Source of the DNA: a virus
Taxonomy: Duplodnaviria; Caudoviricetes
DNA: 61,834 bases
IMG/VR virus record: IMGVR_UViG_3300020061_000006
Location: 1 to 61,834 of that record
Reading direction: 5' to 3' (one strand)
The position numbers were made by a program, and so were the translations under genes. Each line of letters begins with the position of its first letter. The first letter of the stretch is position 1. This document shows, one piece after another, positions 2,730-39,054 of the stretch. Below the pieces are notes generated by a model. It was not told where the DNA came from. It searched no databases and saw only the letters and a list, made by a program, of their open reading frames with translations.

Positions 2730-4196
2730 TTACTTGTTGACTTCTGCGTCATCCAGGGTTTCACGCCACACGAGTCGATCTTCGATCGGCGCCCCGACGC
2801 CAGGCGTCGGATTTGGCATGATCGTTGGCTGACCCATATATGCCGGAGTCAAGACGATGTTGCAAATTTCGCGGCGCACGCTGACCTCGGACTCTGCCCA
2901 ACGCTCCGCCACCGAACCCTCACCATCCAGTAGGCCGACTAGCTGAGGGGGCAGCGTTAGCTTTCGTTCAACAGACTCAAGCTCAATGATCTGCTTTTCG
3001 AGTCTTTCTACGGCTTCGGCCAGCATTACGATTGCCGTAGTGCTGGTCGTCTTCTTCGAAGCCGTTTGGTTCTCTTCACGTTCCGTGCGCGCCTGTGCGA
3101 TCTTCGCACGAATCTTGGCCACCTCGGGATCATTTCCCGACTTAGCGCGCAGTTGCTCTATGATGTCCGGCCGACTTAGCCACCGCAACATTCTTGGAAT
3201 CACGAGCGCATCAACGAGTTTCTTAGGAATCGATGCATGCCCGAAGTCTTTGCACTTATAGAGATCTGCACTGACATTTGTTTTGCCGTTGCATATCCCA
3301 CACTTAAGCGCGGCGGTAAGCGGATGGACAGCCCTGCCGGTCCGATTGTTCCAACGGGTCGGGTCACGCAGAATTCTTTGAACAGCCCAGAAGTCTTCCT
3401 CTTCTACGATGCCGTCCCATGTCCCATTGCGCATTACTCCGTCATGAAGCCGCTTGCCGATGTATACGACCTTCAGCGCCATATCGCGGAGCTGCATACG
3501 CGAGAGCTTTCCACCACTCTTGTTCAGGTAGCCCTTGTTCCAAAACTCCCTTTCGACTGACTTGAGGGACCTACCTGACTTGAGGAGACGAAACAGCTCT
3601 CGAATCACCTTTGCCCTTGAGGTGCTGCCGTAGCGTGGCTCTTCGTCTGCAAGCCACGTGTCCAGGCGGCCCGTGTCCGAATCGTAGATCGGTCGCATGC
3701 CATACGGGGCACGTCCGTGCGGCCGGCCTTTCAACGCCTCTTCGGCTGCCGTCTCCTTCGTGCGAAGGTGAATCATCCACGATTCATAAGCGCTTTTGTT
3801 TGCCTGGTCGATGAGCGCGCTTCGATCCGATCCGTCCGCCGGGTCGTAAAGCCGATGCTGCGTCGTCACGTAGAGCTTGAGCCCCTTAGCCGCCATGGTG
3901 TTAATCATGGTCAGCCACTCTTCCTCTTGACGAGAAAAGCGCGAAGACTCCCAGATCTGCAATCCGTCAGCATCAAAGGTGTCGGATCTCATGTCTAACA
4001 TCATCGACTCGAAATCTTCGCGCCGGCGCTTCTCCGTTCCGTCATAGGACCGCGAAGCCGATCTACTGGCGTCCGTGTAGATCTTCCCTAGATCGAACTC
4101 CAACTTCTCGCGTTCGCGGCGGTTCTGGTCGCCCTGTCGCTGGATCGATGTACCGCCGGTTTTCTTACTCAACCGCCTGTACTCGTTCAACCTCAT
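2730..4196 (-). CDS. int: Large serine recombinase (integrase)
   Basis: N-terminal Y-R-x-S (EYRRLS), ASRS, SRFSR, G-x-PYG recombinase domain, CGIC...YKC zinc ribbon, coiled coil; alternative start 4217. Confidence 0.95.
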   Translation of the reverse strand: MRLNEYRRLSKKTGGTSIQRQGDQNRREREKLEFDLGKIYTDASRSASRSYDGTEKRRREDFESMMLDMRSDTFDADGLQIWESSRFSRQEEEWLTMINTMAAKGLKLYVTTQHRLYDPADGSDRSALIDQANKSAYESWMIHLRTKETAAEEALKGRPHGRAPYGMRPIYDSDTGRLDTWLADEEPRYGSTSRAKVIRELFRLLKSGRSLKSVEREFWNKGYLNKSGGKLSRMQLRDMALKVVYIGKRLHDGVMRNGTWDGIVEEEDFWAVQRILRDPTRWNNRTGRAVHPLTAALKCGICNGKTNVSADLYKCKDFGHASIPKKLVDALVIPRMLRWLSRPDIIEQLRAKSGNDPEVAKIRAKIAQARTEREENQTASKKTTSTTAIVMLAEAVERLEKQIIELESVERKLTLPPQLVGLLDGEGSVAERWAESEVSVRREICNIVLTPAYMGQPTIMPNPTPGVGAPIEDRLVWRETLDDAEVNK

Positions 4197-4444
4197 GCGT
4201 CCAGTGTGGCAGACCATCCACTTCTAGGAACAGCACTCCACTGACAGGCTTTCCAAATCTACACAGTGTGTTAGGAAGGTGTGTCCAAGGACTGACTTTC
4301 CTAGTAGGCGAAGAAAAAAGCCGAACATGCCGGTTGTCATTTCGAGACGGAACAGGGCAAGACCGGCATGCACTCCAAGGGCGGTAGGAGTACATGCCGG
4401 CCTACGGGCGACGCGTGAAGGGGGTACGACACACGGCGCCCGGC

Positions 4445-4639
4445 TTAGGGGTCGTGGCGTCGCTCCACGGCAAGCCACTCGCGGGCTAGCTCTACACCGC
4501 GTCCACACGGCGCGTCGCTCGCACAGTCCCTACACCGCGCCGTGTGGCGCATCAGCCGCGCAAGCTCCGGCGAGCGGTCCCACGGGCGAACCTCGCGGAT
4601 CGACGGCCGGCCATGAGGAAGCACCTCGGGCAGGTTCAC
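4445..4639 (-). CDS. Hypothetical protein (H-x3-CxxC...C zinc-binding)
   Basis: 64-aa ORF overlapping the upstream stop. Confidence 0.5.
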   Translation of the reverse strand: MNLPEVLPHGRPSIREVRPWDRSPELARLMRHTARCRDCASDAPCGRGVELAREWLAVERRHDP

Positions 4640-4848
4640 AGGTGCTCACCACTTACGGAGCGAACGAACGCGCGTTCCTGCTCTTCGCGCCGCAAATCGT
4701 TCCTTGCCAACACGACACGCACATCATTCGCGACGCGTCGCAGGGCATCGCCGATATCACAAATGCCATTGCCCTGGCACGCCACACATTTGGTTTCGTG
4801 GTTTTCGAGCAACAGGAACGACCAGTGTTGTGTTGTCTGGTCGCTCAT
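4636..4848 (-). CDS. Hypothetical protein (HxxxCxxC...C)
   Basis: ATGA coupling. Confidence 0.6.
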   Translation of the reverse strand: MSDQTTQHWSFLLLENHETKCVACQGNGICDIGDALRRVANDVRVVLARNDLRREEQERAFVRSVSGEHL

Positions 4849-4988
4849 CGACTTGCCTTCATGGCTGAGCGGTAGCCGTCGCGGATGCTTGTAATCAGCG
4901 TGCTGATTCCGGCCAGTAGCACCATGCCGATGCCGACGGCAAGTGCCAGCGCGACAGCGCCCAAAATGATGAACAATAGTAGAAACAT
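4845..4988 (-). CDS. Small membrane protein
   Basis: MFLLLFIILGAVALALAVGIG...; AAGGGGGTAC RBS. Confidence 0.65.
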   Translation of the reverse strand: MFLLLFIILGAVALALAVGIGMVLLAGISTLITSIRDGYRSAMKASR

Positions 4989-5201
4989 GATGTACCCCCT
5001 TTCCAATGATCTAATTGTCCATGTGTAGGCACGGAGCCTTCTCGGGATCACCGTGCCTACACAAAGCCAATCAATCGGTTAAAGCCGAACGGCGCAGGGA
5101 CCCTTAACGCTGAACACTATCGCGAAGCGAAACGAGATAGAGACGCGCTCGAAGGGGTTTGTCTCGCATGCCATCCTCTGCGCCGTTCGACATCCAAGGG
5201 G

Positions 5202-5516
5202 TCACGACTCTTCGGGAGCCTTGACCGTCATTTCACCATCCGCCAACCACTTAAGCATTTCCGGGATAGCGGTCAGTTTCGTCTTTTCCCGTACCGCAGG
5301 GTCCGGGATGAACGCCTGTGCTGCGCGCTCAAGTATGACCGTCCAACGGGCCTCTTGCTCGGCTGCCCGTAGCTGGAAATCGATCATCTTCTCTGCGTTG
5401 CCGAAAACCGTGAGCGGAATACCGCAGCACATGTACTTGCGGTTTCCGTTGTCATCCAACCCTAGCGTTGCCGCTTCCGAGATTAAGTGACCGCACGGCA
5501 TCGCCGGTTTGGTCAT
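5202..5516 (-). CDS. Hypothetical protein
   Basis: AAGGGGGTAC RBS, 104 aa. Confidence 0.7.
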   Translation of the reverse strand: MTKPAMPCGHLISEAATLGLDDNGNRKYMCCGIPLTVFGNAEKMIDFQLRAAEQEARWTVILERAAQAFIPDPAVREKTKLTAIPEMLKWLADGEMTVKAPEES

Positions 5517-5569
5517 TTCGTACCCCCTTCAGCTAGGGCCGGCGGACTGCGTGTCCGTAAGCCCTAGCC

Positions 5570-6087
5570 AAAATACAAGCGGATGCTAATCCGCTTGCTT
5601 GGCCGCATCTTCCTCCGGACTGATTCCGGCATCCAATGCTCTTTGGCATATACGATCGGGGCCTGTATGTCATATTTGCGCTAGCGGCGCGGGGAGTGAA
5701 TGGTTCGCTCAACCCTGAATCGCTGACTAGTCAGTCGCTAGACTGTCTGCTCTCCGCAATCGTATCCAGAGTATTTCCGGTTACTCCGGTCACCTTATCT
5801 TTTGCCTTACACAGTCACCCGCGTCTCGATCCACATCATCTGCCTCCCGGCGATGACCGATCCCCAACTCGAAGGTTTGCGACTGCCCAGACGCTTCCCA
5901 GCGTTGGTGTGGCAATCTAACTCAGCTCACGTCTCCCGACGAATCCTGTTAGCTATTGTCTGAAGTGAGACTCTAACTTCGAATCTCTCAAACGGTCCAA
6001 GCTGGATTCCTTACGGTTTCCCTCTTGCCCTAGCTTGCCATTCTGAGTTTCAGGACCGAAGTCCCTTTGCCCTGATCGGCTTGCTTG
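5570..6087 (-). ncRNA. Candidate large structured ncRNA (~510 nt)
   Basis: No credible ORF; nested long-range helices and UUCG/GNRA loops; flanked by a promoter and a terminator-like hairpin. Confidence 0.65.
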
Positions 6088-6092
6088 ATACG

Positions 6093-6121
6093 AATGTCCA
6101 CCCTGCGGTCCCGGTTGTCAA
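6093..6121 (-). promoter_or_regulatory. Sigma70/HrdB-type promoter
   Basis: TTGACA-N17-GACATT. Confidence 0.6.
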
Positions 6122-6349
6122 GTCACGGGGAGATCACGGTACTTGTGTGATCATTTGGGACGCCTGAGGACCTGAACCTACATGCACGTGCATGGGAATC
6201 GACGCTGTCGGCGCCGGCGGATGCGTGGCCACTACGTCAGCGCGCGCACCCGCCTGCGCCCACGTGCGCGATGGCACACCTCCGGGCTGCCGTGCAACCC
6301 GTGGCCTGAGCTGCCCGGACACGGCCGCTCAGGCCCTTGGATCATGGAA

Positions 6350-6385
6350 GCGGCCCGACCCTTCGCGTGAGGGGTCGGGCCGGCT
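6350..6385 (-). terminator. Intrinsic terminator after lsr2
   Basis: CGGCCCGACCCT...GGGGTCGGGCCG hairpin. Confidence 0.6.
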
Positions 6386-6399
6386 GTCCGTCAGCATTG

Positions 6400-6906
6400 C
6401 TACTCGGAACGCCAGTTGGGATTGGCCTTGACGTACGCTTCCGTAATCTTCTCCGGAATGCGGCCCCGGTCCTTCACGTCGTGACCCATGCTCCGCGCCC
6501 ACGGACGCACCTTCTCCGGATCCGGACCATCGGACGTGGAAGTGGAACGCCTCTTGACCGCAGCAGCCGACCGCACGGTCATCTCGCGCGACGAATCGAT
6601 GAAGGGCTTGAGGCTCTTCAGAAGCTTGTCGCGGTTCGCCTTGCCGAGGTCGATCTCGCGGTGATTGACCACCCACGTGGTGCCGGTGACCTTTTCTTCG
6701 TCGTCGGCATCCTCATGCAAGGGCACCTCCTCCGGGTAGGAAAAGCGGATGGTCTCCACACCCTCACCGACGCGCACGTCCACGTCATCCACGCACTCCA
6801 CCTTCCAATAGGTGGAGTGCGACGTACCCATGATTACCGTCGGTGCTTCGATCACGCCATCTTCGTCTTTCCGGCTCTCGTCCACCGGAGTCACGCGCTG
6901 TGCCAT
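6400..6906 (-). CDS. lsr2: Lsr2-family nucleoid-associated protein with acidic insertions
   Basis: MAQRV...VDDVD...ETIRF...EIDL...N.DKL...L.PFI and C-terminal VRPWARSMGHDVKDRGRIP...EAY. Confidence 0.9.
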   Translation of the reverse strand: MAQRVTPVDESRKDEDGVIEAPTVIMGTSHSTYWKVECVDDVDVRVGEGVETIRFSYPEEVPLHEDADDEEKVTGTTWVVNHREIDLGKANRDKLLKSLKPFIDSSREMTVRSAAAVKRRSTSTSDGPDPEKVRPWARSMGHDVKDRGRIPEKITEAYVKANPNWRSE

Positions 6907-7324
6907 TACTGCTCCCCTTCATCGATTCCGTGTCGCGATGCTAGCACACGAAATGCCGAGGTGCGTCAAGGGGGTTCCGTGGTCCAAAACTGCATTGCAT
7001 GAGTATGCGTTGGGCATTATGAGTATTAACTACACAGAGTCTAAATTACTTAACAGTACGTATGCGATCTTGTTTAAATGGCGCCTACCGGCCTATCGGC
7101 ATTGGGTAGGTCCAGCCACCCCACCCCATTGCTCAAAGTCGCTTAGGCGCCGTTAATGCTGGTCAAAGGCTATGGCCTGAGGAGCGTTTCGACCGCCAAT
7201 GACATTGGATAGGATTAGATGTTGACGCATAGGGCTATGCAATGCTACGTCGTTGATCGTTCAATGGCATTGGTTGGCAAGCTCAACCGTTACAAAGAAA
7301 TCCCTCGCGTGCGCGTGATGCCAC

Positions 7325-7353
7325 TTGACTTCAATGCGCGCAATGGCTATCTT
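7325..7353 (+). promoter_or_regulatory. Promoter of the divergent two-gene operon
   Basis: TTGACT-N17-TATCTT. Confidence 0.6.
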
Positions 7354-7386
7354 TGAAACGGAAGAGAAACGCGAAGGGGGTACGAG

Positions 7387-7575
7387 ATGCGCGTGCGGGT
7401 GGTCATCACGGTAGACATGGACGATGAAGCGGTTTCAGACTGGTACGAGACGTTCGGCGTCGCACAGGGGAAGCGCGAAGTTTCGCGCGACGTGAAGCAG
7501 TACCTCGGCAACGCGGCGCAGCAGGTCGGAGTATTCGGCAACGGCGAGGTAACCGCAAACATCACGTGGGAGTGA
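7387..7575 (+). CDS. Hypothetical protein
   Basis: AAGGGGGTAC RBS, 62 aa. Confidence 0.75.
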   Translation: MRVRVVITVDMDDEAVSDWYETFGVAQGKREVSRDVKQYLGNAAQQVGVFGNGEVTANITWE

Positions 7576-25776: not shown

Positions 25777-26132
25777 TAAGAAACACCCAATCCATTAATT
25801 CCGAACACGCTTACAGACACGGTAGGAGAGGTTCCGCCGCTGATATTAGAAATGTTCAGGCGAACAATTCTAGAGATCTGAACAGGGCCGTTTGACTGAG
25901 GAAAATGAGTAAATACAACGCTTGGAGCGTCCAGGTCGCTTCCGCTTCCGCCCTCAAGAACCGGGTACCAATTGACGCCATCAATCGATCCCTCAAGTAG
26001 AACCGTCGCAAAATCAGGACTACCGGTTGTACTTACCTGCATTCCAAAATATCTAACATCGGCCGCATATTCCGATTCCGTAGCGCCCGTTACGGTGGCG
26101 TCCGTTATCCAGTAAATCTTCTCGAATTCCAC
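25776..26132 (-). CDS. Hypothetical virion protein
   Basis: GGAGG plus GTG start; LEGSIDGVNW motif. Confidence 0.65.
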   Translation of the reverse strand: MEFEKIYWITDATVTGATESEYAADVRYFGMQVSTTGSPDFATVLLEGSIDGVNWYPVLEGGSGSDLDAPSVVFTHFPQSNGPVQISRIVRLNISNISGGTSPTVSVSVFGINGLGVS

Positions 26133-26146
26133 AAAGCCTCCAAAAG

Positions 26147-26185
26147 AAAGGGGGTGCAACCGCCGAAACGATTGCACCCCCTTTT
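26147..26185 (-). terminator. Terminator after the capsid gene
   Basis: AAAGGGGGTGCAA...TTGCACCCCCTTT. Confidence 0.7.
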
Positions 26186-26225
26186 GACTTTTCTCAAACA
26201 CCAGTTCGAATGACTGGGAAAAAAA

Positions 26226-27500
26226 TTAGACGCCAGTAACCTTGCAGAAGGCGGCCGGACGGTAGACGACGAAAGCCGCACGCATGTCCGCACGCATGGC
26301 CTGTTTGCCGTTCACGAAGTAATCGGAGTGCGAGTTAGAAACCTGCACGTTGATACCGCGCTTGACGGCAAGCTCGCTGTAGTTAGCGAAGTCTCCGACG
26401 ATGATGGTGCCGGCCACTAGCGCCTGCGCCTCAGTCACCTGAAGTCCCCAGATACGCGAAACGCCGGTGTCGCTCGGGTTGCCCCAGATGTACAGACCAT
26501 CAGCAGTACGCAGAAGTCGAATACCCTGCCAGTCAAAGGGGTTGAACACCGCTGCGTTCGGCATAGCTCCACCGGTAACGCGAACGTTCGTCATGGCCTT
26601 GTAAACAGCATCCGGGGTAGCGTCGCTACCCTTTGCCTGCGTCTGGATGCCCGAGTAGGTAGTCAGACCCTTAAGGTTCGGAGCGTTGCCATCGCCAGCG
26701 AGAATCTGGGAGTCCAGACGCTGACGCACCATGAACGGAAGGCGGTTGTCAACGTAGCCACGAACCTGAGCAACATCCTCAAGCTGTTCATCCGTGATTG
26801 CGAGATAAACCGAGATCTTACGGACGGGCGAACTCTGCTCAGTAAGCTCGAAATCAGTCTGAGGATAGGCGCCACCCTCCGCGACTTCTGTGGCATTTGT
26901 TACGCCATCAGTGCCGAATCCAGTCTCTTCCATGAACACGACCGCAGACTGATTAGTAGCATTCTGCGGAACGATGTCAACGACCTGAATCGGGCGGGTC
27001 ACGAAGTCAACGACACGGCCGGTACGGATGTTCTGAGGTGCCCAGCCATCACCGGTGCTTATGTCCGTGGCAGCAGTCTTCAGCATAAGGCCCTTGAGGT
27101 CAATATCCAAGGTCGCCTCAGGACCAGAATTACCGGTCTTACCCTTGTAAGCCTGCGACTCAATAAACAGATCACCAAAAGACTTGCGCTGAGCAGGAAT
27201 ATTTGCGTTGTTGTTCTCATTGCCGCGCTCACCATCGCGGGCATTCGGCGCCTGCTGAATGCGCTGCGCAGCCTTGAGAGTTTCCTGCAAGTCGTCGTGC
27301 TTAGTGCCCAGGTCGTTAAGTTCGTGGTTCCACTCGCGAACCTGCTTGGCAACCTCGAAGGTGTTACCAGTAACAGACTTCACCTTAGTGAAGTCCATTT
27401 CCGGCCCCGCCTCAGAGATGACCGCTGAAACCTTGGCACGGAGGTTATCAATCTTGCCCTTTACTTCCTTCAGGGCGGGGAAGTCAATTTCAGTAGCCAT
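26226..27500 (-). CDS. Major capsid protein (HK97 family, with N-terminal delta domain)
   Basis: VAEGGAYP, ITDEQLED, QIL.GDG, NP.DW, IWGL.V, GDF, RA..R...V.RP.AF. Confidence 0.95.
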   Translation of the reverse strand: MATEIDFPALKEVKGKIDNLRAKVSAVISEAGPEMDFTKVKSVTGNTFEVAKQVREWNHELNDLGTKHDDLQETLKAAQRIQQAPNARDGERGNENNNANIPAQRKSFGDLFIESQAYKGKTGNSGPEATLDIDLKGLMLKTAATDISTGDGWAPQNIRTGRVVDFVTRPIQVVDIVPQNATNQSAVVFMEETGFGTDGVTNATEVAEGGAYPQTDFELTEQSSPVRKISVYLAITDEQLEDVAQVRGYVDNRLPFMVRQRLDSQILAGDGNAPNLKGLTTYSGIQTQAKGSDATPDAVYKAMTNVRVTGGAMPNAAVFNPFDWQGIRLLRTADGLYIWGNPSDTGVSRIWGLQVTEAQALVAGTIIVGDFANYSELAVKRGINVQVSNSHSDYFVNGKQAMRADMRAAFVVYRPAAFCKVTGV

Positions 27501-37847: not shown

Positions 37848-39054
37848 TCATCCGCCATCCCTGGTCGCCTCCTTATCTATACGAATCAACAGCTCTGCAC
37901 AGCTTGTGGGTATCGTGGCCGCATCCCACCAGTCCCAGTTATTTGAGTCGTCATTTCCTACGGCGAGCTTCAGCCGGTCCGCGAGTGCTTCCACGTACGC
38001 GCTTACCAGTGCGTTCGCCTCGCGCATGGGATAGATGGACTCCATTCCTCCTGCTATCGTGTCGCGCAGCTCTTCTAGGGTCAGGTTGTCTTCAGCTTCG
38101 CTCACGTCTTTACCTCCGGATCGATTGAGTCGATAACGCTTTTGGCGAACCTGGAGCTGTATTCGTCTATGTAAATGTCACACTCGTATAGCTGTAGTGC
38201 AACTTCTCGCTGCTTCTCCGCCAACGCGTGGGCATGCTCGGCAAGGATTCCGTCCGCTATGCGATCGGCTTCTTTGCTCGGCTTTCCCCAGCCTTCGAGC
38301 CATGAGAGTATTTTGTCTCTAGGGCTTTTATCGGCATACTCAACGAGTTCATCACTCATCCGCCCTCCCCCAACACCAGTCCGCATCTATCGCAAACTGC
38401 TACGTAGCCACCTGCGTACCAAACGTTGTACTCCGGAACGTGCTCGCGTCGCCACAAGCACACGAAGATATTCCACCTTCCGCGTAGCCATTTCACGTTA
38501 GCTCCTGCATAGAATGCATCGCGGCATGTATCCGGCGGTTATTTTGCGGCACAGCACGTGATGCTCAAAGTTGAGTATGCGTTCCGCCGCAGGCGGACAC
38601 GTGCATTCGACTTCGTAGTCGAGCCATCCAAGCTCGCGTGCCGCATTCGCAGCCTTCAGCCTGGTATCGAACTCGTTCCAATCCGGTTGTGCAATTTCGT
38701 CGTCTCCAAAGCCTAGGTATTGCTTGCAGCCAACGCACTGCACTCGGTAAAAGGCAACTATCATTCGCACTCCACCTCTATTACTTCGCAGGCCGTGAAC
38801 TTCCAACGCCAATTGACCTTGACGAATAGCTTTCCGGTGTCGCTGAACTTGAAATCCAGGCCGTAGGGATTGAAGCGACGCAAAGCCGCACGCCTGGCCG
38901 AATCCTCCGTGGTGGAGAATGCGACCGGACGTGCGGCTTTCATCACTACGTATCCGCTACGGATTGCGTCCGGTTTCATATCGGAAATCGCTCCTAGCGG
39001 TGCGGCATGCTCGACAGCCAAGGACGTAGCGTGCGCCACTCCAGTGCTTGTCAC
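37848..39054 (-). other. Run of small coupled hypothetical CDSs (37848-38105, 38102-38359, 38498-38764, 38761-39054)
   Basis: Overlapping start/stop arrangement. Confidence 0.55.

Follow-up and report, generated by a model that had tools for sequence, protein, structure and literature searches.

In a soil actinophage, a gene-free stretch probably encodes a hairpin-rich RNA, part of which is kept in a related phage

Upstream of its serine integrase, beside an Lsr2-type gene, a soil actinophage carries a non-coding stretch of ~0.9 kb (about 5517-6399). What is this stretch for, and is it read as RNA? The window, that is the whole stretch of DNA that was analysed, is an IMG/VR virus record of 61,834 bases that was recovered from soil. 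An earlier note, made from the letters of the window, proposed that the minus strand of 5570-6121 encodes a self-contained and highly nested RNA, possibly of a new class. The analysis described below indicates that the ~0.9-kb gene-free stretch probably gives rise to a hairpin-rich RNA and that a related phage keeps part of it.

The two ends of the window are identical over 126 bases (1-126 = 61691-61816), and the contig closes as a circle of ~61.7 kb. Because the first 126 bases recur at 61691-61816 the assembly is circular, and the GC-richer left end with its tRNA genes is therefore phage DNA rather than host flank. The genome is that of a complete, circularly assembled, temperate actinophage. 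The record itself is classed as linear and 80% complete despite the 126-base identical ends. By large terminase the nearest isolated phages are Rhodococcus equi phages (49% identity). The integrase shares no more than 26% identity with those of isolated phages, and 36–42% with proteins named from Streptomyces genomes. By its integrase relatives the phage would have a Streptomyces-like host; the terminase points toward Rhodococcus phages. With identities this low, the lineage has evidently been sampled very poorly.

Along the minus strand come lysis genes, then the Lsr2-type gene, the RNA segment, a 104-aa gene, ORFs of 68, 70 and 64 aa, and the serine integrase. Both flanking genes point the same way as the segment, and Pfam and PHROG matches place it between lsr2 and the cassette that leads to the integrase, as the earlier note had it (Table 1). 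An Lsr2 orthologue with 64% identity (P0015) is encoded on a 1610-nt contig. For the 104-aa protein, Pfam and PHROG give no match and PADLOC none that is significant. Its one relative, P0003 (58 aa), is 61% identical over 46 residues. The two proteins share a conserved N-terminal MPCGH...CCG motif and P0003 is without the C-terminal half. Structure rows of the ESM Atlas hint at a zinc ribbon in the 104-aa protein, all of them below the tool thresholds. A PADLOC scan of the five small ORFs and Lsr2 gave E<0.01 for Lsr2 only, with a weak match (MTase_II, E 0.00028, 17.5 bits). ARAGORN made 7 tRNA calls and found no tmRNA in the record. The tRNA nearest to the RNA, tRNA-Asn at 2345-2419, lies ~3.1 kb away with the integrase in between. 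Two tRNA-like ARAGORN calls (51957-52041 and 53255-53341) are odd, with one 4-nt and one 2-nt anticodon; Rfam scores them as tRNA at 49 and 52 bits.

Table 1. Features of the gene-free stretch and its neighbours, and differences from the related contig in soil metagenome X3 (positions in the window).
Feature	Positions	Strand	Basis or difference
Serine integrase	2730-4217	-	Resolvase and Recombinase domains; phrog_95
X3 comparison	4845-4952		22 substitutions
X3 comparison (469 nt)	4953-5421		Replaced by 317 letters; fits a shorter P0003-type gene
104-aa gene, downstream of the RNA	5202-5516	-	Cys/His-bearing N-terminus; no family
X3 comparison, 3' block (359 nt)	5422-5780		64 substitutions, 22 gap letters
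Predicted leader hairpin; at its base a U-run pairs with GAAG in the 104-aa gene's ribosome-binding site	5524-5573	-	Fold; inverted repeat I1
Predicted hairpin-rich untranslated RNA body, ~525 nt	5568-6092	-	No ORF; flat codon-position GC; z -4.9
Terminator-like hairpin GCAAGCGGAU-UAGC-AUCCGCUUGU plus AUUUUGG, extended by CCAA/UUGG	5568-5602	-	Scan call; pair probability 0.97
Predicted 3' domain: hairpins 5793-5762, 5715-5691, 5690-5678, 5629-5615	5602-5780	-	Kept in relative
Predicted variable middle: hairpins 5993-5958, 5955-5918, 5917-5881, 5862-5828; three GGGA-capped stems	5781-6004	-	Probabilities 0.75-0.99 in the window's own fold
X3 comparison, most of 'domain 1' (224 nt)	5781-6004		Replaced by 126 letters; unalignable at 80%
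Predicted hairpin with internal loops, cap CC-GUAA-GG; second AGGGCAA before it	5994-6030	-	Pair probability 0.73-0.98
X3 comparison, 5' block (546 nt)	6005-6550		50 substitutions, 13 gap letters
Predicted 5' hairpin capped GGGAC-UUCG-GUCCU (6065-6052); has the first AGGGCAA	6032-6085	-	Pair probability 0.63-0.78; in kept block 6005-6550
Putative promoter-like TTGACA-N17-GACATT	6093-6121	-	Strings present; perfect -35, weak -10
Upstream GC-rich, ORF-poor stretch: near-perfect inverted repeats 6382-6351, 6335-6303; palindrome CATGCACGTGCATG 6181-6194	6093-6399	both	z; repeats
Lsr2-type gene	6400-6906	-	Pfam Lsr2_DNA-bd E 1.3e-12; phrog_1223

The segment had been described as free of any credible ORF, and this is borne out. 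Stops occur in all three minus-strand frames, and GC by codon position is flat (0.58/0.49/0.51), compared with GC3 of 0.62–0.79 in the neighbouring genes. The interval 5517-6328 is the third-largest gap in the window without a minus-strand ORF of at least 65 aa. The two larger gaps adjoin across the circular junction and contain tRNAs and an open-ended ORF that the script did not count; about 5517-6399 ranks as the genome's largest non-coding stretch. Translation of 5636-5920 was also considered. This 94-aa plus-strand ORF has no Pfam or PHROG family, and a search of 5.8 billion clusters (3 scored candidates) returned only the ORF itself as a homologue.

Every string quoted in the earlier note was found on the minus strand where it had been placed. 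They include TTGACA (6121-6116), a 17-nt spacer and GACATT (6098-6093); the three pairs of presumed closing strands, GCCGATC (6080-6074)/GATCGGT (5862-5856), AACTCAG (6049-6043)/CTGAGTT (5925-5919) and CGCGGG (5823-5818)/CCCGCG (5693-5688); AGGGCAA at 6073 and 6031; and a terminal hairpin beginning at 5598. What the strings signify is less certain for the promoter and AGGGCAA. The putative promoter has two hexamers 17 nt apart, but the -10 matches TATAAT at only 3/6 positions and the site was not called by a promoter scan. A lone TTGACA is expected an estimated ~0.4 times in ~0.9 kb on two strands. AGGGCAA is indeed present twice, but it occurs 15 times genome-wide against 7.3 +/- 2.8 expected, with 11 copies on the minus strand. 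Since the motif is over-represented across the genome it is not specific to the candidate RNA, and the excess is probably an effect of codon usage rather than a signal. The terminal hairpin (5598-5575, 10 pairs and a loop of 4 followed by ATTTTGG) was called by the scan and is predicted with high pair probability. It is one of 3 terminator-like sites called in 4200-7400, vs 2.5 in shuffles. The same scan revealed no promoter-like site between the terminator hairpin and the start of the 104-aa gene at 5516, and no antisense promoter in the region. A direct repeat formed by CAAGCAAGCCGATCAG (6087-6072) and CAAGCAAGCGGATTAG (5601-5586), matching at 14/16 positions, was considered as an antiterminator or insertion footprint and dropped, as ~0.14 such pairs are expected by chance. 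No tandem repeats were found in 5517-6399.

Does the segment fold better than chance? The minus strand of 5565-6095 has a minimum free energy of -194.9 kcal/mol (z -4.90), which 0/100 shuffles equalled; the plus strand of the same segment has z -2.74. With 25 shuffles the target gave z -4.0, a value reached by 1/18 control strand-windows. This control, the minus strand of 38457-38987 (z -4.23), is tiled by small ORFs of 85–104 aa. In this genome, then, coding sequence can match the candidate RNA in folding. In a GC regression over 492 strand-windows, the two overlapping minus-strand windows of the segment rank 24th and 142nd. Strand asymmetry of folding was dropped as evidence of structure because it vanishes after G skew is regressed out. 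The folding stability of the segment is only mildly unusual. On the minus strand, four hairpins have GNRA or UNCG tetraloops and stems of at least 4 bp, against zero on the plus strand, which ranks the region within the top 1.4% among 2454 windows. This count is mildly supportive of a structured minus-strand RNA.

In the thermodynamic model the RNA is a chain of local hairpins, several with pair probability of at least 0.9, closed by pairing of CGUAUC (6092-6087) with GAUGCG (5609-5604) at a pair probability of 0.91. The nested three-domain architecture proposed earlier finds no support here. Its three long-range closing helices have mean pair probabilities of 0.000, 0.002 and 0.002, and the energy penalty for imposing them is +6.2, +3.9 and +4.4 kcal/mol one at a time, or +14.6 kcal/mol for all three. 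Long-range complementary 6-mers number 18 vs 18.8 +/- 5.7 in shuffles, and 7-mers 3 vs 4.6 +/- 2.6. The elaborate nested fold is no better than chance. The local hairpins and the terminator-like hairpin, on the other hand, are real.

Comparative evidence comes from public sequencing runs that were compared with 4200-7400. One of them, X3, is a soil metagenome from another sample and another study than the probable source of the window. It contains one 1593-nt contig, at depth 5.2, in synteny with the window from the 68-aa gene as far as lsr2 (Table 1). Positions are listed for 40/138 substitutions and 12/27 indels, and the substitutions in 5459-5601 are complete. Most of lsr2 and of the 104-aa gene has no alignment to X3 at 80%, and the two ends of the non-coding stretch are thus the best-kept parts of the neighbourhood. 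In one aligned piece, non-coding 5517-5573 differs by 4 substitutions in 57 nt (93% identity) and the adjoining first 58 nt of the 104-aa gene (5459-5516) by 21 changes (64% identity). Two 19-mers, 5555-5573 and 5518-5536, are intact in X3. Within the leader hairpin (5568-5532) the stem changes at 5537 and 5554 each give G-U in place of a Watson-Crick pair in the minus-strand RNA; read from the plus strand they would give C-A. The change at 5551 lies in the loop. Two compatible changes are weak evidence, with a chance probability estimated at roughly 0.1–0.25. Within 5602-5780 there are five deleted letters, all at 5699-5710, where one predicted hairpin has its top. Conservation is lowest in the terminator hairpin, where 5574-5601 has 6 substitutions and 8 deleted letters. 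Depending on the reading of the deletion coordinates, the reconstructed X3 terminator is a shorter hairpin or no hairpin, with 5 inserted letters left unplaced. The conserved 5' block extends ~300 nt upstream of the putative promoter, into lsr2.

Both ends are kept better than the flanking genes in another soil phage, from an independent metagenome, and this pattern speaks for a functional non-coding element that is read from the minus strand. The self-contained, nested three-domain fold gains no support from it. In each of the proposed closing helices, one strand lies within or next to the 224-nt middle that is replaced in X3. The change of this middle from 224 nt to 126 is what might be expected if the segment were the decayed remnant of a gene or some other filler, and in a phage lineage so poorly sampled nothing forces a function. 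We consider decay improbable. The ends are more conserved than the neighbouring genes, and the searches found no protein or DNA that resembles either the 94-aa ORF, which spans the segment replaced in X3, or the candidate segment.

Could the stretch act as DNA, or simply as a spacer? It would then hold terminators of lsr2 and the late operon, operator palindromes and perhaps Lsr2 sites, with a functionless fold, and the conserved blocks would be protein-binding sites or a recently exchanged mosaic module. The upstream part, 6093-6399, invites such a reading. Its near-perfect inverted repeats fold about equally on both strands (z -4.4 minus, -3.7 plus), the 14-nt palindrome CATGCACGTGCATG is unique in the window and lies within the conserved block 6005-6550, and this part may hold lsr2 terminators and an operator. 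The run of conservation past the putative promoter and the unexceptional folding of 5570-6095 against the genome point in the same direction. However, a merely young mosaic block does not predict the sharp difference between non-coding 5517-5573 and the coding sequence beside it. The G-U compatibility of the stem changes on the minus strand only and the distribution of tetraloop hairpins (4 vs 0) also suggest that an RNA is read from one strand. For the segment as a whole we therefore rate a DNA-level or passive role as unlikely.

Of all pieces the best kept is a predicted hairpin that covers the U-run together with part of the 104-aa gene's ribosome-binding site, and no promoter-like site lies between the RNA and this gene. 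For these reasons we favour, at a probability of about 0.4, a functional, long, hairpin-rich leader or attenuator RNA on the minus strand, whose terminated product may also persist. Transcription would enter near 6090, or farther upstream after lsr2, pass through a string of stable local hairpins and mostly stop at the hairpin 5598-5575. Transcripts that read through would meet a second, strongly conserved hairpin (5573-5524) that would pair the U-run with part of the ribosome-binding site. The element could in this way gate transcription and translation of the small-gene cassette beside the probable attP and, in the circular genome, of the integrase. The terminated product of ~520 nt may accumulate as a stable RNA. 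The lack of coding, the local hairpins, the terminator-like hairpin, the synteny and the pattern of conservation in X3 are shown; transcription, its start site, attenuation and any switching effector we infer. The masking of GAAG in the ribosome-binding site by the leader hairpin and the 0.97 probability of the terminator-like hairpin count in favour of a leader. The weak promoter, a terminator hairpin that is the worst-kept part in X3, a length of at least 500 nt, which is long for a leader, and the failure to find an antiterminator or known aptamer count against it, as do conservation drawn from one contig at depth 5.2 and a folding stability that is unexceptional against the genome background.

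The layout of a promoter-like site, a structured RNA, a terminator-like hairpin and a co-oriented gene with a hairpin-masked ribosome site resembles that of terminator-containing leaders (attenuators and riboswitch leaders) and of type III toxin-antitoxin loci. The latter consist of a tandem-repeat RNA, a terminator and a protein gene (a ToxN/AbiEii-type toxin). Unlike the usual leaders the candidate is several times longer and has no known aptamer, and unlike type III toxin-antitoxin loci its RNA has no tandem repeats and the 104-aa protein is without a family match.

Known RNA families were searched with Rfam 15. At gathering thresholds there were 6 matches, all tRNA. Over 5200-6500 at E<=10 the only 2 matches lay on the plus strand, with scores far short of gathering, and no riboswitch, T-box, 6S, Ms1, RNase P, tmRNA or intron was matched on the minus strand. 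ROOL and GOLLD are phage and prophage RNAs described as often lying near tRNA islands (PMC12286853). The ROOL model (RF03087, 574 positions, gathering 99.1 bits) and the GOLLD model (RF02032, 416 positions, gathering 150 bits) had no match at E<=10 in the whole record, and control genomes were also silent for ROOL. RF01998 (group-II-D1D4-1) had no match. The absence of a match to any known RNA family, ROOL and GOLLD included, thus agrees with what the earlier note had supposed. Like ROOL and GOLLD, the candidate RNA is large and ORF-free and lies in a temperate phage with tRNA genes. GOLLD is described as having one conserved and one less conserved half (PMC12286853), and the X3 relative similarly suggests conserved parts and a variable part. 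Unlike them, the candidate matches neither covariance model. Its nearest tRNA is ~3.1 kb away. ROOL and GOLLD have a conserved multi-domain fold with pseudoknots and covariation, whereas the candidate is known from a single-sequence fold and one partly listed relative.

Homologues of the RNA were sought more widely. There was no match by blastn at 1e-5 in 50,697 phage records and no homologue in 72,556 plasmid records; within the window's own record the RNA found itself only. When the blastn threshold was relaxed to E<=10, 84 phage records (83 Klebsiella phages and one 'Bacteriophage') were returned, the best 40 of which were ~49-nt matches in Klebsiella phage virion genes that were judged to be chance. 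In IMG/VR, queries with the 104-aa protein, the integrase and Lsr2 yielded no relative, alignments A1 and A3 gave 177 and 62 pattern matches that included none, and an exact 22-mer had 0 hits. A 251-aa lysis-region protein identified 14 IMG/VR loci at 28–35% identity; there, as at three Rhodococcus phage loci, neither nhmmer nor blastn detected an RNA match. When R1, a covariance model built from the single sequence 5994-6092, was run on 3 Rhodococcus phage and 2 IMG/VR records, nothing was found. Candidates that were examined and rejected comprise an 18.6-bit R1 match in L014, a terminator-like hairpin judged to be noise; 11 IMG/VR loci with a loop and junction pattern, all chance; and 2 loci from a pattern scan of reference genomes (Hyphomonas and Bacillus), both chance. 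For comparison, a catalogue derived from IMG/VR is described as holding >10,000 candidate structured RNAs (PMC10690425).

The main rival to a leader or attenuator is a free-standing, trans-acting structured RNA of a new class, ~0.5 kb long (at most ~0.85 kb if it starts after lsr2), with conserved 5' and 3' cores and a variable middle, read from the accessory region near the att site. A molecule of this kind would account for promoter-like and terminator-like boundaries, for many tetraloop-capped hairpins on one strand only, for the closing helix between the 5' and 3' ends and for two ends that are better kept in X3 than the flanking genes. It would also suit an RNA that matches no known family in a phage with tRNA genes, as has been described for ROOL and GOLLD (PMC12286853). 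We nevertheless hold it doubtful. The middle, which holds most of the hairpins cited in its favour, is kept neither in sequence nor in length, long-range nesting is at chance level and the terminator is poorly kept. Moreover the stability is equalled by a coding control window, no homologue was found in the 50,697 phage records, the 72,556 plasmid records or the IMG/VR scans, and the nearest tRNA lies beyond the integrase. Slightly less probable is the fuller proposal of a new class of large (0.5–0.9 kb) structured RNAs in barely sampled soil actinophages, independent of ROOL and GOLLD, in which conserved 5' and 3' cores flank a swappable middle and an RNA made from the accessory cassette by attP acts in trans, e.g. 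in lysogeny or superinfection control.

Another precedent among actinophages is the non-coding RNA 'ori' of ~400–500 nt, which is described as prophage-expressed and located in the parABS cluster of non-RepA cluster A mycobacteriophages (Wetzel et al. 2020, PMC7157519). The deleted ori regions, Alma 26463-26959 and LadyBird 25900-26299, are reported there as required for stable lysogeny, and the parABS phages of cluster A are described as being without an integrase (PMC7157519). We wondered whether the present segment might be an RNA-primed replication origin of this kind, or like ColE1 RNA II. The two resemble each other in being ORF-free, of similar size and placed in an actinophage where lysogeny-maintenance functions lie (PMC7157519). 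However, a serine integrase is present here, and no ParA-type match passes the cut-off (PF13614 no match; PF01656 12.4 bits vs a cut-off of 25.4). No sequence likeness was found in the 50,697 phage records and, as noted, the scan revealed no antisense promoter. An RNA-primed origin is accordingly very improbable.

At 4263-4292 the contig graph branches in runs X1 and X2 (the probable source). A 52-nt low-depth record in X1/X2 continues past 4292 with 22 letters unlike the window, and TAGGAA-N20-TTCCTA occurs within 4263-4302, just upstream of the integrase start. The interval 4263-4302 may be the attP core and the side branch an integrated junction. If so, the prophage would place the RNA and the small-gene cassette at the end opposite int, reading outward.

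For now the candidate RNA is a lead with partial comparative support. The immediately usable result is a negative one: the ornate nested fold should not count as evidence. Should the RNA prove functional, it would rank among the very few long non-coding RNAs known from actinophages. It would also sit in the part of the genome that decides integration and carries prophage-expressed accessory functions, and could reveal a new way of gating the integrase or the accessory genes.
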